DNA from: Clostridia bacterium
GTDB taxonomy: Bacteria > Bacillota > Clostridia > TANB77 > CAG-508
Direction of reading: 5' to 3'
DNA length: 64,000 bases
Assembly: GCA_022795075.1 (NCBI GenBank)
Contig: JAAWGB010000001.1
Span: forward strand, 16,383 to 80,382
Below the pieces are notes generated by a model. The model made no database searches. It had not been told where the DNA came from and saw only the letters and a program-made list of their open reading frames with translations. How positions within the stretch are numbered: position 1 is the stretch's first letter; the number at the start of each line of letters is the position of its first letter. Both the position numbers and the translations under genes were made by a program. This document shows positions 4,448-49,228 of this stretch, in pieces.

Positions 4448-5788
4448 ATGAACGAAAAGGATTATATTTGTATTTCTGATATTGCAAAAGTCAAAAGTGA
4501 TAAATCCCGAGTAGCTGTTGTTATAAGAAATTGGTTGCGTAATAGAAGTACATTAGATTTTTTAACTGCTTGGGAGGAATTGTACAATCCAAATTTTAAA
4601 GTGTTCGAATCTGAACACTTTAGAAAGCAAGTAGGCTTATTAACTTTTACACCAAGTGTTACACAATGGTGTGAGAAGACAAATGCAATTGGTATGTATT
4701 CCAAATTAGGTAAATATGGTGGAACTTATGCACATAAAGATATTGCATTTGGATTTGCATCAGCAATTAGCCCTGTTTTTAAATTATATTTAATAAAAGA
4801 ATTTGAGAGATTAAAAGATTTAGAAAATAAAAACAGAGAATGGGATGTAAAGAGAATTTTAACAAAAAATAATTATTTAATACATACTGATGCAATTAAA
4901 AATTACATATTACCAGATAATGATTTTTATAAAAATAGAGAATGGTTGAAATATGCTGAAGAAACAGATATCTTAAATGTTGTCATTTTTAATACGACTG
5001 AAAAAAAGTGGAGAGAACTTAATTCTGATTTAGCAAAAAATTCTAATGTTAGAGATTATGCAACAATTAATGAACTAACAGTATTATCAAATTTAGAATC
5101 GCATAATGCAGAATTGATTAAAGAAGGAAAAAGTAAGGAAGAAAGATTTGAGATATTAAGTAAAATTGCTAAATATGAGCTAGAGATACTTAACAATTCA
5201 GAGAAAATAAAGTTGTTAGGAAGTAAAAATAATGTATTATTAATTCATGGATTTAATGGAATACCAAAAATATTTAATTATTTCAAAAAAGAATTAGAAA
5301 ATAAAGGTTATAATGTGATTTTACCAAATTTTCCACTAAGAGAAGAGATAGAAATAGAAGGGTATTTTGAAGTATTTAATAAATATAAAGGGATATTTAA
5401 TGATAATCTAATTGTAATTGCACATTCAATAGGAAATCCAATGTTTATAAAATATATATCCAAAAATAATTATAAGATTGGAAAATATGTTAGTTTAGCT
5501 GGATTTTCGGAAGCATATTATAATGAAGGAAAAGATGATTTGAATGAAAAAGTTAAATTAACAGTATTAACTGATAAGGAAAAAAAAGATGCAATCAGAC
5601 AAATTAATGAAAAATACTCAATATATAGCGATGATGACCATATAGTGCCTTTTAATTTATTAGAAAAATATTGTAGAGATATTGAATCAAAGCCTATACT
5701 GATAAAGAGTATTGGACATATGGGAAAAAAGAGTGGATTAGAAACGTTACCAGAAGTAATAGATTTAATTGATAATAATAGCTTATGA
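4448..5788 (+). CDS. KilA-N (APSES-type DNA-binding) domain fused to a serine-hydrolase/YdeN-like alpha/beta-hydrolase domain
   Basis: N-terminal residues 1-130 (ISDIAK...NWLRNRSTLDFLTAWEELYNP) are a KilA-N domain. C-terminal residues 260-446 (LLIHGFNG...IAHSIGNP...DDDHIVP) are an alpha/beta-hydrolase of the Ser_hydrolase type. Confidence 0.6.
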   Translation: MNEKDYICISDIAKVKSDKSRVAVVIRNWLRNRSTLDFLTAWEELYNPNFKVFESEHFRKQVGLLTFTPSVTQWCEKTNAIGMYSKLGKYGGTYAHKDIAFGFASAISPVFKLYLIKEFERLKDLENKNREWDVKRILTKNNYLIHTDAIKNYILPDNDFYKNREWLKYAEETDILNVVIFNTTEKKWRELNSDLAKNSNVRDYATINELTVLSNLESHNAELIKEGKSKEERFEILSKIAKYELEILNNSEKIKLLGSKNNVLLIHGFNGIPKIFNYFKKELENKGYNVILPNFPLREEIEIEGYFEVFNKYKGIFNDNLIVIAHSIGNPMFIKYISKNNYKIGKYVSLAGFSEAYYNEGKDDLNEKVKLTVLTDKEKKDAIRQINEKYSIYSDDDHIVPFNLLEKYCRDIESKPILIKSIGHMGKKSGLETLPEVIDLIDNNSL

Positions 5789-5818
5789 GGAAAGTAATAA
5801 TAAAAGGAAGTGAAATTA

Positions 5819-6736
5819 ATGAATAATAACGAAGAAAAGTTACCAAAAGTCAATATCAACTGGTATCCTGGACATATGGCAAAAACAAGAAGACAAATAG
5901 AAGAAGATTTAAAAATAATAGATGTAGTAATCGAATTGTTAGATGCACGAATACCAATATCTAGTCAAAATCCTAATATAGCTAATATTATCAAGAAAAA
6001 GAAAAAAATTGTGGTATTGAATAAATGTGATTTAGCAGATGAAAAGCAAAATCAGTTGTGGATACAATATTTTGAAAAAAAGGGAATCATAGCAGTATTA
6101 ACAGACTCAAATTCTGGAAAAGGAATTGACCAATGTATTAGAAAAATAGAAAGTATGATGAATACAGATATGCAATTACAAGCTAGTAAAGGAAGAACAG
6201 GAAGAAAGATAAGAGCAATGATATTAGGAATTCCTAATGTAGGAAAATCTTCTTTTATTAATCGAATTTCAAAAAGAACAACAGCTGGAGTAGGAAATAA
6301 GCCAGGAGTAACCAAACAAAAGCAATGGATAAGAATTAATGACAAAATAGAACTGTTAGATACACCAGGAGTATTATGGCCAAAATTTGAAAGTGAGGAA
6401 GTAGCACTAAATTTAGCCTTTACAGGAACCATCAAGGAAGATATATTAGAAAGAGTAGATATTGCTTATTATCTAACTAAATTTTTAATTGAAAATAATC
6501 GAACCCTATTATGTGAAAGATATAAAATAACCGAAGAATTTATAACAAAAAAGATGTCACAACAACAACTAGAAAATGAGAATATTTATGAAATAATGCT
6601 TGAAATAGGAAAGAAAAGAGGATGTATTATTTCTGGCGGAAATATAGATGAAGAGAAGACAGCAAGAATTTTATTAGATGAATTTAAAAATGGAGTAATT
6701 GGAAAAATAACAATAGAATCACCAATTAACAGATAA
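5819..6736 (+). CDS. rbgA: Ribosome biogenesis GTPase A (YlqF)
   Basis: Signature WYPGHMAK plus the G motifs DARIP, NKCDL and GIPNVGKSS. The ATG at 5819 is preferred over the GTG at 5810 because of the RBS aaggaag. Confidence 0.85.
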   Translation: MNNNEEKLPKVNINWYPGHMAKTRRQIEEDLKIIDVVIELLDARIPISSQNPNIANIIKKKKKIVVLNKCDLADEKQNQLWIQYFEKKGIIAVLTDSNSGKGIDQCIRKIESMMNTDMQLQASKGRTGRKIRAMILGIPNVGKSSFINRISKRTTAGVGNKPGVTKQKQWIRINDKIELLDTPGVLWPKFESEEVALNLAFTGTIKEDILERVDIAYYLTKFLIENNRTLLCERYKITEEFITKKMSQQQLENENIYEIMLEIGKKRGCIISGGNIDEEKTARILLDEFKNGVIGKITIESPINR

Positions 6737-6759: not shown

Positions 6760-7290
6760 ATGGAAGAATGGATAAATTTTAATAGACCAGAAGAGGAAGT
6801 TAATTTACTATCTCCACTTACATGGGCATATGTTGGAGATTGTGTATATGATTTATATATAAGAACGAAATTAGTCAATCAAACAAACTTAAAACCGCAT
6901 AAATTGCATATTGAAACAATAAAATATGTCAAAGCACGAAGTCAAGCAAAAATTCTTGAAACAATACAGGAGCAATTAACAGAAGAAGAAAAAAATATCG
7001 TAAGACGTGGCAGAAATGCCGAAAGTCATCATTTGCCTAAAAATTCAAATGTTCAAGAATATAAATATGCTACAGCTTTTGAGGCTTTAATTGGCTATTT
7101 ATATTTAACCAAAAAATCAAAAAGATTAAAAGAGATTTTAAATTTTGTAGGGGACAATTGGGGACGGTTCTTGATTGCTCCTTTTTTTGTGTGTAAACTG
7201 GCACTTGGAATTTTCCTTCCCTTAGCTTGGGGAGATGCTTGCAACTTTAAGGGTATAGTAATTTTAAAACTTAGATTCGCTTCAAGCTAA
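6760..7290 (+). CDS. mrnC: Mini-ribonuclease 3 (Mini-III), with the ORF running on into a repeat arm
   Basis: LTWAYVGDCVYDLYIR and EALIGYLYL are Mini-III motifs. The last ~45 codons (from ~7150) lie inside the foldback-repeat arm, so the native C-terminus was probably altered. Confidence 0.75.
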   Translation: MEEWINFNRPEEEVNLLSPLTWAYVGDCVYDLYIRTKLVNQTNLKPHKLHIETIKYVKARSQAKILETIQEQLTEEEKNIVRRGRNAESHHLPKNSNVQEYKYATAFEALIGYLYLTKKSKRLKEILNFVGDNWGRFLIAPFFVCKLALGIFLPLAWGDACNFKGIVILKLRFASS

Positions 7291-7520
7291 TTTTCGAAAA
7301 ACTTCTAAATTTATTTTATGGCACCCTTTCAAAACAAGTTTTGAACATTTTCCATAAAATAAATTAAGAATTTTTATCTCAATTACTTTCGATTCATCTA
7401 AGTTTTAAAATTACTATACCCTTAAAGTTGCAAGCATCTCCCCAAGCTAAGGGAAGGAAAATTCCAAGTGCCAGTTTACACACAAAAAAAGGGGCAATCA
7501 AGAACCGTCCCCAATTGTCC
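7152..7520 (+). repeat. Palindromic foldback repeat, copy 1 (arms 7152-7277 and 7396-7520; core ~7278-7395)
   Basis: The ~126-bp arms are inverted copies of each other with a single mismatch. The core is shared with the copies at 10.7, 33.8 and 52.9 kb. Confidence 0.85.
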
Positions 7521-10634: not shown

Positions 10635-10673
10635 AGTGTACTTCTAGTTAAAGAATGTAAGACTAAATACGAA

Positions 10674-10867
10674 CACTGTCAACTTGAAAGTTTATCTAAA
10701 AAGAAGACAGTGAATTGAAAGTAATTTTTGATAGAAATTCTTCATTCATTTTATGGAAAATGTTCAAACTTGTTTTGAAAGGGTGCCATAAAATGAATTT
10801 AGAATTTCTTCGAAAATTAGCTTGAACGAACTGTCTTCTTTTTTAGATAAACTTTTAAGTTGACAGT
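10674..10867 (-). repeat. Palindromic foldback repeat, copy 2 (inverted relative to copy 1)
   Basis: ~37-bp imperfect inverted arms (tgtcaacttgaaagtttatctaaaaagaagacagt) flank the core shared with the other copies. Confidence 0.85.
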
Positions 10868-10923
10868 TTTGGGTAAAAAGTGATAAAAATTAAGAAACAA
10901 GAAAATAAAAGGAGGAAAAATAA

Positions 10924-16383: not shown

Positions 16384-16487
16384 ACAATGTTACCTATCTA
16401 AAAAATAGAAAAAAGAAAAACTGCGAATTGAAAGTAATTGAACGAGCAGTTTTTCTTTTTTCTATTTTTTAGATAAGTAACATTGTG
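16384..16487 (+). repeat. Short member of the foldback repeat family. It carries only the conserved end segment and has 41-bp perfect inverted arms.
   Basis: Arm acaatgttacctatctaaaaaatagaaaaaagaaaaactgc, centre gaattgaaagtaattgaacga, then the reverse complement of the arm. The centre and the tatctaaaaa tract match copy 2. Confidence 0.6.
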
Positions 16488-16553: not shown

Positions 16554-17812
16554 GTGAAAAGAAGAAAACGAATTTTTTTGGTTATCTTTATGATTTTGAC
16601 CTTTTTATTTTTTGCAGATATCAATCTAACATATGCCTTAACGCCTAGTTCCAATCCACAATATGAAGGAATTGATGTTAGTAATTGGCAAGAATACATA
16701 GATTACAGGCAAGTGGCACAAAGTGGAATTAAAGTAGTATATATTAAATCAAGTCAAGGAAGTAACATTAAAGATGCTTATTTTGATATCAACTATGAAA
16801 ATGCTAAAGCAAATGGACTAAAAGTAGGGTTTTACCATTTTTTAACGGCAACCAATACACGGAGAAGCGGAGCAAGAAGCACAATTTTTTGCTTCTGTTA
16901 TAGCTGGCAAACAACCTGATTGTAAACTGGTAATGGATTATGAAGTTTTCGGTGGAGTTAGCAAAGAAGAATCCAATCGAATTGCTGAAGTCTTTTTAGA
17001 AACAGTAAAAAGACTAACCAACAAAGAGGTAATTGTATATAGTGATTTATCTAATGCACGTGACCGATTTGGAAGAGAAATAGCAGATAATTATGAATTA
17101 TGGATTGCCTATTATGGCGATTATAATAATTTAAGAAATGTAGAAACTAGTTGGGAAAGATGGATTGGTGTGCAATATACGGATAGAGGATATGTACCAC
17201 GGAATTAGAGGGAATGTAGATAGAGATTTATATACAGAAAATATATTTTTATCTGACACAAGTGAGATTCCGAATACAGATAATCCAAATGACAATATCA
17301 ATACTCAAACCATTTTTTATACCATACAAAGAGGAGATACATTATCAGGAATTGCTAGTCGATATGGAACAACTGTACAGGAATTAGTGGATATTAATAA
17401 TATTACAAATCCGAATTTGATTTATCCAGGAGAAACGATAAGAATTTCGACAAATTCAACAGTGCATGGGTCAGAAACAAGAGGAACAGGAAGTATTGTA
17501 TATACTGTACAAAGAGGAAATACCTTATCTCAAATAGCCAATACATATGGTGTCACAGTTGCTCATATTGTAGAATTAAATCATATACAAAACCCAAATT
17601 TGATTTATCCAGGTCAAAAATTAAGAATTACAGAGAGTTCAAATACTAATTTAAATTCAGTGATACAAAACAATTATTATACAGTGCAAAGAGGGGATAA
17701 TTTATCTAATATAGCCCAAAGATATGGGGTTTCAGTTCAATATTTAGTTAATTTGAATGGTATTCGTAATCCTAATTTGATTTATGTTGGACAAATGATT
17801 AAAGTTTCGTAG
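16554..17812 (+). pseudogene. GH25 muramidase (lysozyme) with a signal peptide and three C-terminal LysM repeats, interrupted by two +1 frameshifts
   Basis: GIDVSNWQ...GFYHF is a GH25 motif. The frame shifts at ~16860 and ~17200, both reading cacgga where cagga restores the frame. There are three LysM repeats (YTVQRGDTLS...). Confidence 0.75.
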
Positions 17813-32499: not shown

Positions 32500-33693
32500 A
32501 TGAAATATGCACAAATGGCAATTACCGTTTCTGAATTAAATCAATATATAAAGAACAAAATAGCACAAGACGAATATTTAAATAATGTTTTAATAAAAGG
32601 AGAAATTTCAAATTTTAAAAATCATTATACAGGTCATATGTATTTTACTTTAAAAGATGAAAACTCACTTATTAAATGTATTATGTTTAAGTCTTATGCC
32701 CAAAAATTAAACTTCATGCCAAAAGATGGAATGAAGGTATTTCTTTTTGGTGGGATATCTGTTTTTGAAAGAGATGGTGTTTACCAAGTTTATGTAAAAG
32801 CAATGGAAGAAGATGGAGTAGGCGATTTATATGCTAAATATCAAGAATTAAAAAACACATTAGAAAAACAAGGGTTATTTGACGAAGAACATAAACTACC
32901 AATACCAATGATGCCAAAAGTAATTGGTGTTTTAACTTCTCAAACAGGTTCTGTTATTCGTGATATTATAAATGTGTCAACAAGGAGAAATCCAAATGTT
33001 GTTCTTCGCTTGTTACCAGTTCCTGTACAAGGAGAAGGAGCAGCTCAAAAAATTGCAGAAGGAATTCAATTTATGAACCGAAATAAATTAGCAGATGTGC
33101 TAATTTTAGCAAGAGGAGGAGGCTCTTTAGAAGATTTGTGGCCTTTTAATGAAGAAGTGGTGGCCAATAGCATTTATCACTCAGAAATTCCAATTATATC
33201 AGCAGTTGGTCATGAAACAGATTTTACCATAGCAGATTTTGTAGCAGATTTACGAGCACCTACACCATCAGCAGCTGCTGAATTGGCAGTACCCAATATT
33301 TATGAGGTAAAACAAAAAATAGTAGCCTATGAAAATCGATTGCGTCAATCTCTTATTAAAAAAGTTCAAGTGATGAAATTAAGATATGAAAAAAGTATGT
33401 CAAGTTTTGTATTTAAAGAACCTACACGCAGAATACAAGAAAATTATATTAGAATTGATAACTTTGTCAAGCAATTGGAAAATTTGATGAAAACGAAACA
33501 AGAAAAGGAAAAAAATAGATATGGCAAATTAGTAGCTAAATTAGATGCTTATAGCCCTTTGAAAACTTTGGCAAGAGGCTATACAATCACCCAAAAAGAA
33601 GGAAAAATTATTACTAAAAAAGCAGAACTAAATACAGGAGATTTGATAGATATTAGATTTGAAGATGGGCAAGCAAAAGCAAAAGTACAGTAA
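32500..33693 (+). CDS. xseA: Exodeoxyribonuclease VII large subunit
   Basis: OB-fold N-terminus followed by an ExoVII_L catalytic domain (ARGGGS, GHETD). Confidence 0.9.
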   Translation: MKYAQMAITVSELNQYIKNKIAQDEYLNNVLIKGEISNFKNHYTGHMYFTLKDENSLIKCIMFKSYAQKLNFMPKDGMKVFLFGGISVFERDGVYQVYVKAMEEDGVGDLYAKYQELKNTLEKQGLFDEEHKLPIPMMPKVIGVLTSQTGSVIRDIINVSTRRNPNVVLRLLPVPVQGEGAAQKIAEGIQFMNRNKLADVLILARGGGSLEDLWPFNEEVVANSIYHSEIPIISAVGHETDFTIADFVADLRAPTPSAAAELAVPNIYEVKQKIVAYENRLRQSLIKKVQVMKLRYEKSMSSFVFKEPTRRIQENYIRIDNFVKQLENLMKTKQEKEKNRYGKLVAKLDAYSPLKTLARGYTITQKEGKIITKKAELNTGDLIDIRFEDGQAKAKVQ

Positions 33694-33731
33694 AAAGGTA
33701 AAACAATTTTTAATTTAGCAAGTTACGAAAC

Positions 33732-33925
33732 CTGTCAACCTAAAAGTTTATCTAAACAAGAAGATAGGTTCGGTCAAGATAATTTTCGAAGAACTTCTAA
33801 ATTTATTTTAGGGCACCCTTTCAAAACAAGTTTGAACATTTTCCATAAAATAAATTAAGAATTTCTACCTCAATTACTTTCTATTCACTGTCTTCTTGTT
33901 TAGAATAAACTTTTAGGTTGACAGT
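33732..33925 (+). repeat. Palindromic foldback repeat, copy 3, inserted between xseA and xseB
   Basis: ~35-bp inverted arms related to copy 2, plus the conserved core. Confidence 0.85.
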
Positions 33926-33979
33926 ATTGATAAGAGAAAGATAAATGAAATAAATGTAAATAAGAAGGAGGGAAAAATT

Positions 33980-34198
33980 TTGAGTAAAAGTTTTGAAGAA
34001 CAAATGGAGCAATTAGAAAAAATTGTAGAAGAACTAGAAAAAGGAGAACTAAATTTAGAAGAATCTGTTTCAAAATTTGAAGAAGGAATTAAAATTTCTA
34101 AACAATGTAATCAAACATTAGAAGAATCAGAGAAAAAAATAACCATTTTAGTTAACCAAGATGGAGAAATAAAGGAGGAAAACTTCGAAACAACATAA
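33980..34198 (+). CDS. xseB: Exodeoxyribonuclease VII small subunit
   Basis: TTG start with RBS aaggaggg. MSKSFEEQMEQLEKIVEELE. Confidence 0.85.
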   Translation: MSKSFEEQMEQLEKIVEELEKGELNLEESVSKFEEGIKISKQCNQTLEESEKKITILVNQDGEIKEENFETT

Positions 34199-37680: not shown

Positions 37681-38003
37681 TAAATTTTAATTATAATAGT
37701 TTATTAAAAATTTATGGCTAAAATAAACAAAAAATATTAATTTTTCAAAATTTATGAGATTTTGAATGCGACCAAAACAGCTCTAAAAATGATTAAAATA
37801 AAGCTATGAAGGGTCCTGTTTTCGGGTAGTAGTCATAGCTTTATTTTTAGCATTTTTTAACGTCGTGAAGGGTAGCCGAAAAATCCAATAAATTTTGAAA
37901 AATCAATATTTTTGTAAATTACCAATTTAAAATATTAAATGGTAATTTTTATTAACCAAATAGATAATAACAAAATCTACATAAACCAAAAGAGAGGAAA
38001 CCA

Positions 38004-39775: not shown

Positions 39776-41389
39776 TTGGGAATTAGTGTGATATTAATTA
39801 TATGCAATATTTTTGGAACCATTCACCCTTTTGTAATGAAGAAAATTTTAGAAGTGGACATTCAGTCTGATGGTGTACAAATGATTTTAATACAATTAGT
39901 TGCACTCTATGTAGGAATCCATGTAGGTTATGCTTTTCTAAAGAATGTAAGAAATATTCAAATTAATAAACTGATGGCAAAAGTAGTAAGAGATATTCGA
40001 GAAACTTTATTTGATAAAGTATTAACATTCAAAATGAGAACCTTTGAAAAATACAATTCAGCACAACTCTATACAAGACTAACAGATGATATCAACCAAT
40101 TAGGAACCATGTTTATGGGAGCCTTAAATGTAGTCGTCAATAATGTTATCTATTTAATTTTTATGGTTATTATGATGTTTTTTGCTAATATTTCATTAGC
40201 ATGGATAGGATTAGCAACAATTTGCTCCATTGGGTTATCAACTAAAAAATTTACGAAACTATTAGGAAACTATACACAAAAATTCATGAAAAAAAGAGAT
40301 GAAGAAAACAAAAGATTTTCAGAATTTTTTAACAGAAATAAATTAACCTATTTATACCAATTACAAGAAAGAAATATAAAGGAAGTCAATTATTTATTGG
40401 ATAAAGAATTGCAAGCAAGAAAAGGTTATATTTTATTACAAAGTTTTACCTATTGGACCTTAACACTTTTAGAGGCTTTAGGAATTTATGCTGTTCTTTA
40501 TTATGCCCTAAATATCAATGTATCCATATCAATTGGTAGTATTTATTTAATATTATTTTATATCAAAGAATGTAGAGGTCCTTTAAATGAAATATGCAAT
40601 CAATTAGAAGAAATTCAAAATTGTATGGTATCTTACCAAAGAATTGCAGAGGTTTTGAAAGAAAAAAATCCAGAGAACTTAAGTAGTGGAGAAGAAGTAG
40701 AAACCGTAAAAGGAGATATTGAATTTCAAAATGTATGGATGAAATATGAAAAAGAAACCGTTTTAGAAAATGTATCTTTTCTAATAAAAGAAGGATCGAA
40801 AGTAACCATTGCTGGAAGAACAGGAGCAGGAAAATCAACTTTAGTAAATGTTTTAATGAAAATGTATGATATTCAAAGTGGAAAGATATTAATTGGTAAC
40901 AAAGATATTCATAAAATAGCTACCAAAAGTTTAAGAAACAATATTTCTTATATCTCGCAAAATCCTTATATTTTTGCAGATACCCTAAGAAATAACATTC
41001 GATTAGGAAACCAAAATATAACAGATGAGCAAATTATGAATTTAGTCCAAGAAATAGGAGTAAATCCACTACTTGAAAAATTGCCACAAGGATTAGATAC
41101 CACTATTAAAGCTAATGAAATGTCTTATGGAGAATTGCAAATAATTGCTTTTATACGTGCTATTTTGCACCAAGCCAATATTTATATTTTTGATGAGCCA
41201 ACATCTAATATTGACTTAAAAACAGAAAATATGATTCAAAAAATCATTGACCATATTTCCAAAACAAGTACAGTACTAATTATTGCACATAGAAAATCGA
41301 CCATTGCAAGTTCCGATAAAATTATTTATTTAAAAAATGGAAAAGTAGATAGGATAGTTAATAAGGAGAAAAACAGTGAATTATTATGA
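39776..41389 (+). CDS. ABC transporter permease/ATP-binding protein (partner half-transporter). Start is uncertain.
   Basis: GRTGAGKST and the ABC signature. The frame is open upstream to 39722 (KEIVKKHLKTF) with no ATG, so the start is either the tracked TTG or a non-canonical upstream codon. Confidence 0.7.
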   Translation: MGISVILIICNIFGTIHPFVMKKILEVDIQSDGVQMILIQLVALYVGIHVGYAFLKNVRNIQINKLMAKVVRDIRETLFDKVLTFKMRTFEKYNSAQLYTRLTDDINQLGTMFMGALNVVVNNVIYLIFMVIMMFFANISLAWIGLATICSIGLSTKKFTKLLGNYTQKFMKKRDEENKRFSEFFNRNKLTYLYQLQERNIKEVNYLLDKELQARKGYILLQSFTYWTLTLLEALGIYAVLYYALNINVSISIGSIYLILFYIKECRGPLNEICNQLEEIQNCMVSYQRIAEVLKEKNPENLSSGEEVETVKGDIEFQNVWMKYEKETVLENVSFLIKEGSKVTIAGRTGAGKSTLVNVLMKMYDIQSGKILIGNKDIHKIATKSLRNNISYISQNPYIFADTLRNNIRLGNQNITDEQIMNLVQEIGVNPLLEKLPQGLDTTIKANEMSYGELQIIAFIRAILHQANIYIFDEPTSNIDLKTENMIQKIIDHISKTSTVLIIAHRKSTIASSDKIIYLKNGKVDRIVNKEKNSELL

Positions 41390-42207
41390 GAGCCTAAACA
41401 AACTAATTGATACCATAGAAGAAAATTTAGAAACACAAATTGATTATAATGATTTAGCAAAGGTAATAGGAACATCATCTTATACCATGCAAAGGATTTT
41501 TGCTTTTTTGGTAGGTATCACAGTAACGGAATATATTAGAAAAAGAAGATTAAGCAAAGCAGCAGAAGATTTGAAAAGAACCAATCAAAAAATTATTGAT
41601 ATAGCTGTAAAATACCAATATGATTCTCCAGTATCATTTACACGGTGCCTTTAAAAAAATGTATGGACAATCGCCAACTAACTTTAGAAAAAGCAATACG
41701 AAAATAATCTTTTTTCCAAAAATAGAATTTGATTTAGCCATAAAAGGAAAAAGTGAATTAAAATATCGAATAGTAGAAAAAGAAGAACAAATTTTTTATG
41801 GAAAGACAACAGGAATAATAGCCGATACAGATAAAAAAGCTATACAGAATTTGTATCAAACTTTAAAAAAAGATGGAACAATCGATTTTATGGTAAACAA
41901 TAAAAAAGGAAAAGAATGTTATTATGGAATTTATGAACCAATTTATGAAAAAGGTATGTATACGCAAAAAGGCAAATACTATGTTTTAAGTAAAACACCT
42001 CGTGAAGACTTTGTAGAAGTAAAACTTCCAAAAGCTAAATGGGCCTGTTTTAGTGTACCAAATAAAAGACAAAAAAATATTGTAAAAATAGGTAAGCAAA
42101 TTTATAATAACTGGTTACCTGATTCACATTATTATTTAACAGAAGTTTATTTAGAGTGGGAAATCTATTATGAAGATTATTGTGAAATTTGTATAACAGT
42201 GGAATAA
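41376..42207 (+). pseudogene. AraC/Rob-type regulator (HTH_AraC N-terminus plus GyrI-like effector domain), +1 frameshifted at 41641-41645
   Basis: YDSPVSFTR then a frame change, then AFKKMYGQSPTNFR. The sequence reads cacggtg, and removing one base restores the consensus. Confidence 0.65.
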
Positions 42208-42284: not shown

Positions 42285-42547
42285 AGGATAGGAAAGGTTA
42301 CAATTTACTAAGTTGATTTTTTATAAAAGTTTATATAATTTTTTCTAAAGTAACTCCCAATATCGAACAGTCTGTAATTGCATAACAGACTGTAACTCAT
42401 CGGTCCCCCCGAATGTTACTTTATAAAAAATATATAAACTTTTTGATTAAAATAATAGAACAGTAAATTGTAACTAGGAAAGTTCTCTGAACTTTCTATC
42501 ATATAAAATGTTTCAAAAAATCAGAAATGTTGTAAAAGAAGGAAGAA

Positions 42548-44225
42548 ATGATGAAAGTTTTGAAAGGTAGCAAAAAATATATGATAGTATTAATAATATT
42601 AAGTTGTATCTATTCGTATTTTAGTTTACAAATTGCTGTTTATATTAGTTATGCCATAGATGGCTTACTATTTCATAATAGGAACCAAATTCCTAGTTAC
42701 TTAAGTCAAATAATAAAAGGAGATACCATAAAAGGATTGCTCGTATTAGGTGTAATCATGATAAGTATAAATGCAATCATTGCAATTGTAGGGTATATTA
42801 GACAAAGAGTAACAACCTTATTTTCCTTAAAGATCAGTTCAACAATAAAAAAGAACTTGTATGCTCATATATTAAATTTAAAATATCAAAGTTATCAGTC
42901 TTATAGTAAAGTAGAAATGTTACAAAGAGCTAATGATGATGCACAAGAATATGCCAATTTTTATAAAGTGCAGTTTAATTTAATGTTAGATATTATTTCT
43001 TTAAGTTTTTTTGTTATAACGCAAAGTATCGTTTTTAGTATCTCGATTACTATATATTTAATAATAACTATTACTATTATGATATTATTTGCTTTTTGGT
43101 ATTATCGAAATATGATGCTAGTATTAGAAAAAGTTATTGTTAAAAAGAAGAAAATGTTGGGAGCAATTATAGATAATGTTAATCAATTCAAATTTACTAG
43201 AATTTATAATCGACAAAAAGCAGAAGTACAGAAATATAAAAAATTAAACAAAGATTATACAGAAGAAGACATTAGACTGGTAAAATTAATTTTATTTTAT
43301 GAAATTATTAGTGAACACATTACTTATTTAAAATCTCCAATTATCTATCTATTGGGCGGAATTTCAATTATGAAGGGAACTATGACTATGCGGTACATTA
43401 ACTGCTTTGTTGTTATTTGCCACTAATATACTAAATACTATCTATTCATTTGGAGAAAATTTGGAAGAAATTAATAACTTTTTAATCATAAAACAAAAAA
43501 TCAAAAAACTAATGGATTTGGAAGAAGAAAAAAATGACAATCATTTTTATGATTTAAATGGAGATATAAGATTTCATAATGTTTCGATAGAAATTGCCAA
43601 AAAGAAAATTGTGTCAAACCTAAATTTAATAATTAGAAAAGGTGAAAAAGTAGCGATTTTTGGAGAAAACGGAAGTGGTAAGACAATGCTTGCTAAAGCT
43701 ATTTTGAAGTTAATTCCATTAAATGGTAATATTTACTTAAATTATCACAATAATAAAGAATTAAATCAATCTAACATACATGAGTATATTGATTTTATTC
43801 AAGGAGAAGTTGACTTATTTACAGGAACAATATGGGATAATATCGTGTTGAACCATTTAGCAACAGAAAAGCAATTGATAAAAGTATTAAAAGAAGCGGA
43901 AATTTATGAAGAAATTAAACACTTTGAAGAAGGTTATCAAACAACTGTAGGAGAAAAAGGTGTTAAACTATCTGGCGGACAAAAGCAAAGAATTTTAATT
44001 GCAAGAGCTTTGATGAGAAATAAGCCAATTATGATATTTGATAATGCTTTTTGTAAATTGGACAACCAAACCGCTAATAAGATTTTTGAAACATTAAGAA
44101 CCAAGTATCCTAAAACAACTATGATTTTTATTACTCATAAGCAGGAGATAAAAAACTATGTGGATAATATCTTAGAATTATCGAATAGAGGATTAAAACT
44201 ACCAAAAAAGGAAGGAATAAAATGA
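42548..44225 (+). pseudogene. ABC transporter permease/ATP-binding protein, +1 frameshift at 43391
   Basis: TMD then NBD. ...IMKGTMT[frameshift]GTLTALLLFATNIL. The sequence reads atgcggtac, where atggtac restores the frame. Confidence 0.7.
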
Positions 44226-45873
44226 AAGAAAAACATAAATTAAAACAGTTTCAAATGATGTATCAAGATGTAGGGTATCATAAAAAATTTATAGTTTTGT
44301 TTGTATTAATTATTGTAGCAACTATATTAGAAATTATAACCGTTCCTCCTATTATTAAACAAATACTAGATATAGAAATACCACAAAAAAATGTACAAGG
44401 TTTTATCGTTTTAATAATCATCTACATTTTTATGATATTGGTACAAGGTTATATGGTATTAAGGCATTGTGAAATGAGATGTTTTTTATCAAGAAAAATA
44501 AAAAGAGATTTAAGAAATCGAATTTTTGAAAAATTGCAAAAAGTGAAAGCTAAATTTTTTGATGATCATGAAACAGGAATGATTTTACAATTTTTACAAG
44601 ATGATTCCCAAAATGCTGGACAATTGTTTCCAATTGTTACAACAGAAATGTTTATAATGGGGTTGATTCGATTTTCTATTATTTCGATATTTCTATTATT
44701 TGTTAATTTAAAAATAGCACTTATCATTTTGTCATTATACTTAATAGGATTGCTTATTACTTTATTTTTCAATAGTAAGACAATGAAAAAACTAATAGAA
44801 ATTAGAAAGGTTAATATGGCTGTATATACCACTATCAATGAAGGAATACAAAATTATTTAACCATAAAAACATTAGGAATTATCCATGAGAAGGTTAAAG
44901 ATTTAGAAAGTAAATTAGAAAAATATAATTATGAAAATAGAGAACTAGAAAAAATAATTAGTACCTATCATACAATATTTTCTTTTATTACATCTCTTTC
45001 AACAGTTGTTGTTATTTATTTTGGTGGCATGAATGTTATACAAGGAATGATGACTTATGCACAAATTATGCTAATGATAGATTATTCGGAATATTTGGAA
45101 TTTGAATTTAGTTGGTTTACAAGACATTTAACAGATTTTAATCAATGTTTTTTAGCATATTTAAAAATTTTAGAATTACTAGAAACCGCAGAGGAAGAAG
45201 ACTTAGATAAAGGAAAAGAATTAGTCGATAAAATTACGCATATTGAATTTGATAAAGTATCATTTTCCTATCAATCTACCAAAAAAAATATTGAAAATTT
45301 TTCCTTGCAAGTAACAGAAAATGAAAATGTTGCTTTAATTGGTAAAACAGGAGTACGGAAAAACAACAATTATCAATTTGTTAGAGAGATTATATGAACC
45401 ACAAGAAGGAGAAATTCGTATGAATCAAAAGGATTATAGAGAATATAGTATTGCTTCCATTCGTAAGAAAATTGGCTATATCATGCAAGAGGTGCAAATT
45501 GTACCAAATACGATTATCGATAATATGAAATATGTTAATCAAAAAATAACAAAAGAAGAAATTATGGATATATTTAAAACTTTAAAATTACATGAAAAAA
45601 TTATGTCTTTGCCAAAGGGATATTATACGAATATTTATGAAGATTCAACTATTCTTTCGACAGGAGAAAAGCAGATGATAAGTTTTGCTAGAATTATGGC
45701 CATGTCTCCTGATATTGTTATTTTAGATGAGGTTACTTCTGATTTGAGTTGGGAAAATGAGAAATTAATAAAAAATGCCATGGATTCAGTCATGAAACGG
45801 TAGAATTACTTTTATGATTGCACATAGATTATCTGCTATTGAAAAATGTGACAAAATTATAGAGATAAATTAA
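44222..45873 (+). pseudogene. ABC transporter permease/ATP-binding protein, two +1 frameshifts (45356 and 45788)
   Basis: GKTGV[cgg]KTTIINLLERLY restores the Walker A motif GKTGVGKTT when one C is removed. MK[cgg]... restores ...MKGRITFMIAHRLSAIEKCDKIIEIN* ending at 45873. Confidence 0.7.
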
Positions 45874-46198: not shown

Positions 46199-46392
46199 AA
46201 AAAAACCTCCTTATACTTGTGAATTTTCTAGCATAACCATATTATAGCAAAATTTACATAAAAAGTCAAATGAAGAAAAACATAACCAAACTCTTGTTTT
46301 TAAAAAAGAAATATAGTATAATAAGAAATGTGAGAAAAAAGTTGCCAAAGCAGACATATCTTTTTGGCACAAATAAAACAGGGGGAAAAAAG

Positions 46393-49228
46393 ATGAATGA
46401 TAAAATTACAATAAAAGGGGCAAAAGAACATAATTTAAAAAATATAAATTTAGAAATACCAAGAGATAAATTAGTTGTCATTACTGGTCTTTCAGGATCA
46501 GGAAAATCAAGTTTAGCATTTGATACTTTATATGCAGAAGGGCAAAGAAGATATGTAGAGAGTTTATCTTCTTATGCTAGGCAATTTCTTGGGTTAATGG
46601 AAAAACCAGATGTAGAAAGAATTGACGGATTATCACCTGCCATTTCCATTGACCAAAAAACAACTTCCAAAAATCCACGTTCAACAGTAGGAACCGTAAC
46701 AGAAATTTATGATTATATCCGTTTACTATATGCAAGAATTGGGGTTGCCTATTGTCCAAACTGTCACAAAAAAATAGAAAAACAAAGTATTGATCAAATT
46801 ATTGACAATATCATGAGTTTAAAAGAAGATACTAAAATACAAGTATTAGCACCAGTAGTAAGAGGACGAAAAGGAGAATTTACCAAACAATTAGAAGGCT
46901 ATCAAAAAGATGGTTTTGTAAGAGTTAGGATAGATGGAGAAATTTACGAATTAGGGGAAGATGAGATTGTTTTAGACCGAAAGAAAAAACATGATGTAGA
47001 ATTAATAGTAGATAGATTAGTCATTAAAAAAGATATGGTAAGCAGATTAACCGAATCAGTTGAAATTGCATTAAAACATGCTGATAAAATGGTTTTAATT
47101 GATATTGTGGGACAAGAACCAGTTTTATATAGTTGTAATTATGCGTGTTCAGAATGTGGCTTTAGCTTTCCAGAATTAACGCCAAGAATGTTTTCTTTTA
47201 ACAATCCATTTGGTGCTTGTCCAACTTGTACAGGGATTGGATATTTAATGAAAATGGATGAAGATTTAATTATTCCTGATAAAAATAAAACCCTATATGA
47301 TGGTGTAAAAGCCTTTGGTTCAAGTACCATGAAAAAAGGCGATACTATGGCAAAGATGTATTTTGAAAGTATTGCTAAATATTATGATGTTACAATTAAA
47401 AACAAAAAAATTAAAGATTTACCAAGATGGTTTATGGAAAAAATCTTATATGGTACAGGAGAAGATGAAATTGATTTTGAATACTCTTCTTATGCAGGAG
47501 TTAGAAAATTTAAAGCACCATTTGAGGGGGTATTACCAACATTAGACAGACGTCACAGTGAAACCAAATCACAAGGAATGCGAGACTTTTATGAAATGTA
47601 TATGAGCAATTCTCCTTGTTATTCTTGTCATGGAGCAAGATTAAAACCAGAGATATTATCCATAAAAATAGGTGACAAAAATATTAATGAACTAACAGAT
47701 ATGTCAATCAATAAAATAAAAGAATACTTAAACAATTTAAGCCTAACGAAAACACAAGTCATGATAGCAGAATTAATCTTAAAAGAAATTGACCAAAGAT
47801 TACAATTTTTAATGGATGTAGGTTTAGAATATTTGACTTTATCAAGAAATGCAGGAAGTTTATCAGGAGGAGAAGCACAAAGAATTCGTTTAGCTACACA
47901 AATTGGATCAGGACTAACAGGAGTATTATACATTTTAGATGAACCAAGTATAGGATTACATCAAAGGGATAATGACAAATTATTAGCAACACTTAAAAAA
48001 TTAAGAGATATAGGAAATACTTTGATAGTAGTAGAACATGATGAAGACACCATGTATGCAGCAGACCAAATAATTGACATTGGACCTGGAGCAGGAACCC
48101 ATGGTGGACAAGTTATGGCACAAGGAACAGCTGAAGAAATTAAGCTAATAGAAGGTTCTGTTACAGGACAATATTTAAGTGGTAGAAAACAAATAGCTGT
48201 ACCGAAAAAAAGAAGAAAATATACCAAAACAAAAGTAATTGAGGTACAAGAAGCAAGTGAAAATAACTTAAAAAATATTAGTGTAAAATTCCCATTAGGT
48301 GTATTTACTTGTGTGACAGGAGTTTCAGGTTCACGGAAAATCTACATTGGTCAATGAAGTATTATATAAAACAGTTGCAAAAGAATTAAATGGATCCAAT
48401 GAAAAACCAGGGAAATGTAAAGGCGTAAAAGGGTTACAAAATATTGATAAAATTATTAATATAGACCAATCTCCAATAGGAAGAACACCACGTTCTAATC
48501 CAGCAACTTATACAGGTGTATTTGATTTAATTAGAGATATTTTTGCAGCAACTGAAGAAGCTAAAATAAGAGGCTATCAAAAAGGTAGATTTAGTTTTAA
48601 TGTAGCAGGTGGAAGATGTGAAAGTTGTAATGGAGATGGTGTGCATAAAATTGAAATGCACTTTTTGCCAGATATCTATGTACCATGTGAAGTTTGTAAA
48701 GGAAAGCGTTATAATCGAGAAACATTAGAGGTAAAATATAAAGGAAAAACCATTGCAGACGTTTTAGATATGACAGTTGAAGAGGCATTAACATTTTTTG
48801 ATAAGATACCAAAAATCAAACAAAAAATACAAACTTTGCATGATGTAGGTCTTAGTTATATAAAACTAGGTCAGCCATCAACAACTTTATCTGGAGGAGA
48901 GGCACAAAGAGTAAAACTAGCTACAGAATTATCCAAAAGAGCAACTGGCAAAACGTTATATATTTTAGATGAACCGACTACAGGTTTACACATTGCCGAT
49001 GTTCACAAATTGGTAGATATTTTACAAAGATTAGTTGATACAGGAAATACCATTATAGTAATTGAACATAATTTAGATTTGATAAAAACATGTGACCATA
49101 TTATTGATTTAGGACCAGAAGGTGGCGACAATGGTGGAGAAATTGTAGCAATTGGTACACCAGAACAAATCTGTACCAATGAAAGAAGTCATACAGGCAA
49201 GTTTTTAAAGAAATATTTAGAAAATTAA
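46393..49228 (+). pseudogene. uvrA: Excinuclease ABC subunit A, +1 frameshift at 48334
   Basis: Start MNDKITIKGAKEHNLKNI with RBS gggggaaaaaag. ...CVTGVSGS[cgg]... restores [17 protein letters not shown] when the C is removed. Confidence 0.85.

Follow-up and report, generated by a model that had tools for sequence, protein, structure and literature searches.

A foldback repeat of a dispersed Clostridia family between xseA and xseB: a probable lineage-specific insertion into an operon

Introduction

The genes for the two subunits of exonuclease VII (ExoVII), xseA and xseB, are separated by 286 nt in the 64-kb window analysed here (the whole stretch of DNA studied, whose positions are used throughout), and a long foldback repeat lies in the space between them. 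This raises the question of how the gap came about and whether the repeat does anything for the expression of the two subunits. A sequence-only reading of the locus had left two answers side by side, namely a processing site or attenuator in the transcript and a recent insertion. Here it is proposed, with a probability of roughly two in three, that the gap results from a lineage-specific insertion of a non-coding foldback of ~200 nt into a short spacer, that the insertion is tolerated, and that the operon is read through.

Results

The xseA-xseB locus

The large subunit gene xseA (397 aa; 32500-33693, plus strand) matches the Pfam family Exonuc_VII_L (1.6e-95) and has an N-terminal OB fold, and the small subunit gene xseB (72 aa; 33980-34198, plus strand), which begins with TTG, matches Exonuc_VII_S (4.7e-19). 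Both genes are therefore real, and the end of xseA at 33693, the start of xseB at 33980 and the 286-nt spacing given earlier are exact. The gene directly upstream is nusB, and a DUF212 gene and fhs follow downstream; the G+C content of the window is 28%.

The foldback element in the gap, referred to as copy 3, spans 33722-33936 (plus strand, core in plus orientation), with a predicted hairpin of -73 kcal/mol and a score of 157 bits against the covariance model R1. The strict palindrome corresponds to 33732-33924 (reported as a 195-nt hairpin), with weaker pairing continuing out to 33722-33936. The earlier statement that a repeat fills the gap is thus right as to the repeat, which is a true copy, but not as to the filling, because the element occupies ~195-215 of the 286 nt. 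What remains on the left (33694-33721, plus strand) aligns loosely to the 5' part of the 87-nt spacer of a relative (L013), and what remains on the right (33937-33979, plus strand), as read from the sequence, includes the xseB ribosome-binding site AGGAGG (33966-33971); both can be taken as remnants of the ancestral spacer. The sequence AAGGAGGGAAA ahead of the TTG start is conserved in L013, and the xseB start in the relatives is a TTG at the same position, or GTG in L017/L018. Neither the AGGAGG nor the TTG of the window is touched by the element.

Folded as RNA, the gap gives one long hairpin on the plus strand (MFE -74 kcal/mol, z = -6.2) and an MFE of -75 kcal/mol on the minus strand (z = -7.8), and none of 200 shuffles folded as well. 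The left outer arm of copy 3 (33732-33767, plus strand) pairs with the right outer arm (33888-33924, plus strand) through a perfect 20-bp helix and a 16-bp helix in which one pair is G-T. The end of the right arm is GTTGACAG, which brings an outward-facing TTGACA to 33918-33923. Between the arms lies the conserved core (33768-33887, plus strand), delimited from the alignment A3; it has three asymmetric internal loops of fixed sequence, and its apex (33820-33836) is the stem-loop TTCAAA-ACAAG-TTTGAA.

The same 286-nt gap is found in two independent public assemblies (L006, L008), and five short-read contigs with an identical xseA break within the element. These Logan contigs end 148 nt past the xseA stop codon in four of the five cases (L007, L009-L011) and 78 nt past it in the other (L012). 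The identical gap and the breaks inside the repeat argue together that the gap is not an assembly artefact, and such breaks are the behaviour expected from a genuine repeated palindrome. As it fragments short-read assemblies, the family is probably under-represented in MAG-based collections.

Other copies and distribution of the family

Five copies of the element, including copy 3, are present in the window, and copies 1, 2, 3 and 4 share a core of ~120 nt at 88-94% identity. Copy 1 (7152-7520, plus strand), with 125-nt arms that are complementary at 124 of 125 positions, sits on the last codons of a mini-RNase III gene, upstream of a tRNA promoter. Copy 2 (10672-10870, minus strand), in which the core is inverted, has a P-type ATPase gene on one side and metG on the other; over ~200 nt, arms included, its identity to copy 3 is 89%. 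The arm sequence of copy 3 is common to copy 2 and partly to the mini copy and to L021, and it is absent from copies 1 and 4. The mini copy (16384-16486, minus strand), with 41-nt arms, has lost the apical ~100 nt and keeps just the base of the core (GAATTGAAAGTAATT|GAACGA); the covariance model matches it with 46.5 bits (E = 1.5e-8). Copy 4 (52819-53064, plus strand) lies between two minus-strand genes, has outer 61-nt arms that are 100% complementary (61/61), and its locus is also present in the JGI contig L020. An (ATT)n microsatellite to the left of copy 4 (52780-52803) has eight units in the window and seven in L020.

In copies 1 and 3 the core has the same sense as the flanking transcription, whereas in copy 2, copy 4 and the mini copy it runs against it. 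All copies whose flanks were checked are intergenic, close behind a stop codon, and most of them lie between co-directional genes. Also, the mini-RNase III ORF (6760-7290) reads ~45 codons into the left arm of copy 1, giving a protein of 176 aa as compared with 128-138 aa in relatives; in one relative (L031) the frame stops at a TGA within the same arm, in a different frame.

Beyond the window, a 19-mer scan of the GTDB genomes, which are representative genomes evidently lacking the species of the window, found two true loci in uncultured Clostridia (L003, L005) and three chance matches. Three further loci came from a scan of JGI metagenomes: L019, with two copies in 2.8 kb, L020 and L021. The element was absent from the viral contigs scanned, and BLAST found none in plasmids and phages. 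A profile of the translated core retrieved nine spurious small proteins, the contigs of which gave more divergent copies. In all, ~15 distinct copies are known, all from MAGs and metagenome contigs. The Rfam scan of the window passed the gathering threshold for only two tRNAs, leaving the element without a family, and E-value scans of copies 1 and 3 returned nothing but plant miRNA models of the generic long-hairpin type, with scores far under the threshold. This is apparently a repeat family of an uncultured low-GC Clostridia clade that has been undescribed so far.

Public gene catalogues call 'proteins' of 37-69 aa across the element (P0121-P0129, for example at 10001-10168 of L022), since one frame of the core is open (..NFRRNSKFILWHPFKTSLNIFHK..). 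These predictions are almost certainly spurious ORFs, although they can serve as handles for finding copies. A peptide or toxin gene in the core was considered and rejected: the 12-codon frame concerned (MAPFQNKFEHFP) lacks its ATG in copy 3 and carries a frameshift in copy 1.

Empty sites and age of the insertions

The comparison of the xseA-xseB spacing in related genomes gave three lengths. The gap is 24 nt in L015/L016 (XseA 87% identical), 87 nt in L013/L014 (from two samples; XseA 93% identical), where it contains neither a hairpin nor the element, and ~205 nt in L017/L018 (XseA 84% identical), where a different foldback is present. No copies of the element were found in the syntenic DNA of these relatives (~21 kb each). 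Removing the 195-nt hairpin from the window would leave 91 nt, near the 87 nt of L013, and the spacer ends align. The suggestion of a recent insertion is supported by these empty sites and by the length left after removal. The accompanying statement that xseA and xseB are normally adjacent or overlapping describes this clade, with spacers of 24 to 87 nt, but is not universal.

As for age, the window and L013, its nearest relative, agree at only 61% of the four-fold degenerate sites of xseA, and copy 3 is 89% identical to copy 2, which makes copy 3 younger than the split from L013. Insertion of the core into a pre-existing palindrome was rejected for copy 3, since the L013 spacer has no hairpin.

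An empty site is also available for copy 1. In L034, whose mini-RNase III is 86% identical, the tRNA promoter follows the end of the gene without interruption, and the window has ~390 nt added at this point, which include the core and both arms of copy 1. These arms were thus inserted DNA and not duplicated local flank. In three contigs of a closer relative (89%; L031-L033), the copy 1 arm starts at the same place and the contigs break 32 nt into it; these 32 nt of distal arm are identical to the window (32/32), against 65-69% identity at the four-fold sites of the two adjacent genes. With empty sites for both copies 1 and 3, the element shows the insertion polymorphism of a small, non-coding, multi-copy element.

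No consistent direct repeat of fixed length, as a target-site duplication would leave, flanks the eight copies inspected; the copy 1 empty-site comparison gives a possible degenerate duplication of ~10-14 nt, which is ambiguous. Terminal inverted repeats conserved across copies were not found, the outer ends being different, and neither transposase, recombinase, invertase nor Y1/HUH (RAYT) domains were detected in the 48 of 57 window ORFs scanned. With no conserved termini, consistent duplication or transposase, it is the distribution of the copies that speaks for a mobile element. Capture of inverted local flank was rejected as the origin of the arms for copy 1, from the L034 empty site, and for copies 2 and 3, which have the same arms at different loci; flank capture at a donor site could still have supplied them.

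Family anatomy and covariation

The description of the core is based on alignment A3, with 11 copies, in which the ~120-nt core has 75 invariant columns. Covarying helices separate the three asymmetric internal loops, each fixed in sequence and with non-complementary sides: the basal loop TTCGnTC/TCnATTC (TTCGTTC/TCAATTC), the middle loop TTCGA or TTCGT/ACCTC, and the loop below the apex, CACCCT/CATTTT. Four versions of the apical stem occur (TTCAAA/TTTGAA, TTCGC/GCGAA, CACG/CGTG and TTCATG/CATGAA). Over 55 pairs, 93.6% of the cells are paired and 28 pairs show double changes; none of 500 shuffles reached the observed covariation, and pairing falls to 41-58% in a control in which the partners were slid.

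In contrast to the core, the outer arms, of 20-125 nt, differ among copies and are common only within subfamilies, one comprising copies 2, 3, the mini copy and partly L021, and a separate one comprising copies 1 and 4. The outer ends read GGGGACAATTGG in copy 1, TTTTCTTCAAGAG in copy 4 and CTGTCAAC in copies 2 and 3, and they are different again in L003, L005, L019 and L021, so that the shared part of the family is the centre only. Within one copy, however, the two arms are almost perfectly complementary. The arms of copies 1 and 4 are homologous at ~66% identity, and each of their ~20 differences has its compensating change in the opposite arm.

G-T and A-C mismatches are nearly equal in number (27 and 29), a weak test given that many of the mismatches belong to the shared loops, and on the transcribed strand G-U and A-C number 23 and 22. 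The equal counts, together with the occurrence of both orientations, give no sign of selection on one RNA strand.

Conservation of orthologous copies

An orthologous copy with homologous arms is present between nrdD and nrdG in two species, at 10005-10121 in L022 (also in L023-L026) and at 9826-9942 in L027 (also in L028). The two genes form a pair that needs joint expression. The cores of these copies are 93.2% identical, compared with 60.7% at the four-fold sites of nrdD, and outside the copy the spacer cannot be aligned. Where stem positions differ, the change is compensated, and the apical stem has switched to CACG/CGTG. The persistence of this copy indicates that such elements can stay in operons for long periods while evolving far more slowly than neutral sequence. 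An insert that is just tolerated would be expected to drift, and conservation of orthologues far above the neutral level therefore points to selection, conversion or very recent spread. This conservation and the invariance of the three asymmetric loops are left unexplained by the account of a tolerated insertion.

The same observations bear on a rival explanation, in which the element is a structured RNA or ssDNA selected by the host (a processing, stability or protein-binding hairpin) and, by lying within the two-gene operons xseA-xseB and nrdD-nrdG, sets the expression ratio of the two cistrons. Strong covariation in all four helices, internal loops that are invariant in sequence across species, and orthologous copies conserved well above synonymous sites speak for such a function, and the placement of the checked copies behind stop codons, mostly between co-directional genes, agrees with it, as do the REP and ERIC precedents for effects on mRNA stability (PMC3184786). 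However, the element occurs in both orientations relative to transcription, so that the conserved loops would differ in the RNA, and the transcribed strand has no bias of G-U over A-C. In addition, the nearest relatives manage xseA-xseB with 24-87 nt and no copy, an unrelated foldback occupies the same spacer in L017, and one copy disrupts the end of a coding sequence. Taken together, host selection for a regulatory hairpin is considered an unlikely explanation of the gap.

A wider reading of the same conservation, proposed here tentatively and with considerable doubt, is that the element is a functional hairpin module, recognised as ssDNA or RNA through its three invariant loops, and that hairpin-templated propagation or maintenance regenerates one arm from the other. 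Such a process would explain at once the conserved centres, the copy-specific complementary arms and the conservation above neutrality.

Signals for transcription and the state of the operon

The sequence-only reading had proposed a search for a promoter inside the repeat, which came back empty: the consensus scan found no promoter-like site in the gap, and none is shared across 12 copies. The remaining candidate signal is the TTGACA of the right arm (33918-33923), ~60 nt upstream of xseB, which copy 2 repeats upstream of metG; promoters have been described in Correia elements and further repeats (PMC3184786). A promoter that faces outward and drives xseB, uncoupling it from xseA and splitting the operon, would nevertheless need a -10 hexamer, and none that is acceptable, with A2 and T6, occurs 16-18 nt past TTGACA, the candidates being ATAAAT, GATAAA and TAAATG. 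With the scans of the gap and of the 12 copies also empty, this explanation is very improbable.

A transcription terminator or attenuator between xseA and xseB is suggested by the very stable stem, 38 nt past the xseA stop codon. However, the stem of copy 3 is A+T-rich and is followed by TATTGATAAG and not by a T run (GACAGTATTGATAAG), and the consensus scan of 33694-33979 finds no terminator-like site. Since xseB has no detectable promoter of its own, termination here would silence the essential partner subunit, and the same element persists between nrdD and nrdG. The probability of a terminator is accordingly judged to be a shade lower again than that of an xseB promoter.

The least probable of all is that the core is an inverton, flipped between its inverted arms to make downstream expression phase-variable: inverted repeats of 20-125 nt surround the core, which has opposite orientations inside near-identical arms in copies 2 and 3, but it has no promoter-like site, stands in one orientation in all seven independent assemblies of the xseA-xseB locus (7/7), and is accompanied by no invertase or recombinase in the 48 of 57 window ORFs scanned, while the arms are palindromic, so that the orientation of the core relative to them is uninformative on flipping.

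The lack of a terminator or promoter in the element, the intact translation signals of xseB and the persistence of the nrdD-nrdG copy make it a reasonable inference, drawn from the sequence, that the element must be tolerated in the xseA-xseB transcript, as had been supposed. The processing site or attenuator that was also suggested finds no specific support in the sequence.

Discussion

A tolerated insertion and its possible consequences

In the preferred explanation, a foldback repeat of a dispersed Clostridia family would have inserted into an ancestrally short xseA-xseB spacer. Because the element brings neither terminator nor promoter and the ribosome-binding site of xseB is intact, the two genes would probably still be co-transcribed, and the transcript would carry a very stable hairpin. 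Its basal helices of 20 bp and 16 bp (36 bp, near-perfect) make a plausible substrate for a double-strand-specific RNase, by analogy with REP, ERIC and MITE repeats in transcripts (PMC3184786). The insertion would be tolerated and not recruited, and its effect on ExoVII is probably small and post-transcriptional, through cleavage or an altered stability of the two halves. For ExoVII itself the insertion should have little consequence, as the subunit genes and the translation signals of xseB are intact. The event is of an ordinary sort; what is unusual is the element, whose structure is strongly conserved.

The arms probably stay complementary through processes acting on the DNA, either intrastrand template switching or conversion at quasi-palindromes, a reading suggested by the near-perfect arms and the rarity of wobble intermediates; alternatively, the arms could be kept up by selection for a single-strand hairpin needed in mobility. 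Template switching at quasi-palindromes is known to make imperfect repeats more perfect (PMC7202029). It would account for the ~20 compensated positions at which copies 1 and 4 differ in their arms; however, it is a mutational process and does not explain why the three asymmetric loops of the core resist correction. ExoI and ExoVII have been reported to abort template-switch events at quasi-palindromes (bioRxiv 10.1101/2020.10.27.357855). A foldback inside the ExoVII operon is nonetheless a curiosity, as nothing links ExoVII activity to the element.

The unrelated foldback in the L017/L018 spacer and the occurrence of both orientations suggest that the xseA-xseB spacer is permissive, having taken up different foldbacks on two occasions, and is not the seat of a dedicated regulatory device.

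Comparison with known repeats

Among the known systems, compared by architecture and with no claim of homology, ERIC is the closest, and the resemblance is one of kind. Like ERIC (~127 nt), the element is an imperfect palindrome of ~120-130 nt, most conserved at its centre and with longer and shorter variants, and it is found at transcribed intergenic positions in either orientation, so that architecture and placement both agree. ERIC has been described as having terminal inverted repeats and a flanking TA, and has been reported to alter the stability of flanking mRNA (PMC3184786). Other MITE-like repeats, too, are co-transcribed and can alter mRNA stability (PMC3184786). The element differs from ERIC in the phylum in which it occurs, in lacking the terminal inverted repeats and the flanking TA, and in the extension of its core by 20-125 nt of copy- or subfamily-specific, almost perfectly complementary arms.

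REPINs are G+C-rich, are known mainly in Proteobacteria and are mobilised by RAYT transposases. They are extragenic long hairpins in which compensatory changes are common and, in part of their length, structure outweighs sequence, and they remain in lineages for long times, features that the element shares (PMC3116915), with compensatory maintenance of its hairpin seen in 28 of 55 pairs and in none of 500 shuffles. A REPIN, however, consists of two invariant REP ends, inverted around a less conserved spacer (PMC3116915), and the topology of the element is the reverse, with an invariant centre and variable ends. Also, no RAYT (Y1 transposase) gene is present among the scanned window ORFs (48/57).

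MITEs are defined by conserved terminal inverted repeats and by target-site duplications matching those of a parent IS. Like the MITEs Correia, RUP, bcr1 and Nezha, the element is small, non-coding, multi-copy and intergenic, with presence or absence between relatives. Occasional fusion to ORF ends and co-transcription with neighbours, described for MITEs (PMC3184786), are also ascribed to the element. Unlike a classical MITE, it has termini that differ among copies and no consistent duplication, and without conserved termini, a consistent target duplication and a parent IS it is not assigned to that class. The element is a small palindromic intergenic repeat with an unusual layout of conserved centre and variable arms.

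What makes the family distinctive is the combination of an invariant asymmetric core, covarying stems and arms that differ from copy to copy. If the conservation of the orthologues reflects function, it would offer a tractable structure-selected DNA or RNA hairpin in uncultured gut-type Clostridia, and a natural experiment on the way in which long palindromes stay perfect. If the reading as a hairpin module were true, the family would be a replicator or cis-element of a new class in Clostridia, defined by its structure and topologically the inverse of the REPINs.

Other foldbacks and split genes

The foldback in the xseA-xseB gap of L017 (11215-11365) belongs to a second, unrelated family, with a relative in the window at 42314-42523, between an AraC/GyrI-like gene and an ABC transporter gene. 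The window sequence matches the L017/L018 foldback at 90% over 40 nt and at 79% over 53 nt, and the family likewise folds into a hairpin, whose islands (CTCCCAATATCG/CTCATYGGTYCCCC) are asymmetric and whose apex varies in length. Homology between the L017 foldback and the element in the same gap of the window was considered and rejected, the local alignment being no better than shuffles. A third foldback in the window (37730-37913) has 34-nt arms (91% complementary) and a 116-nt centre with a nested 25-bp hairpin (37785-37857); no other copy was present among the sequences compared.

The distal arm of copy 1 contains a motif (7152-7185), GGGGACAATTGGGGACGGTTC..TTGCTCC, which is found as a single non-inverted copy after priA in L015 (85% over 34 nt). 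In the same relative, a foldback of its own, with arms containing GGGACGGGG, lies between def and fmt; the L015 positions concerned are 5761-5793 and 6359-6470. The arms of copy 1 may have come from a different repeat family.

Several genes of the window appear as adjacent or overlapping ORFs (16554-17208, 41376-42207, 42548-45803 and 46270-49228), including those for a GH25 lysozyme, an AraC-HTH/GyrI-like regulator, two ABC transporters and uvrA. The priA and ABC genes of L015 are likewise split. These split genes may correspond to assembly indel frameshifts or to real pseudogenisation.
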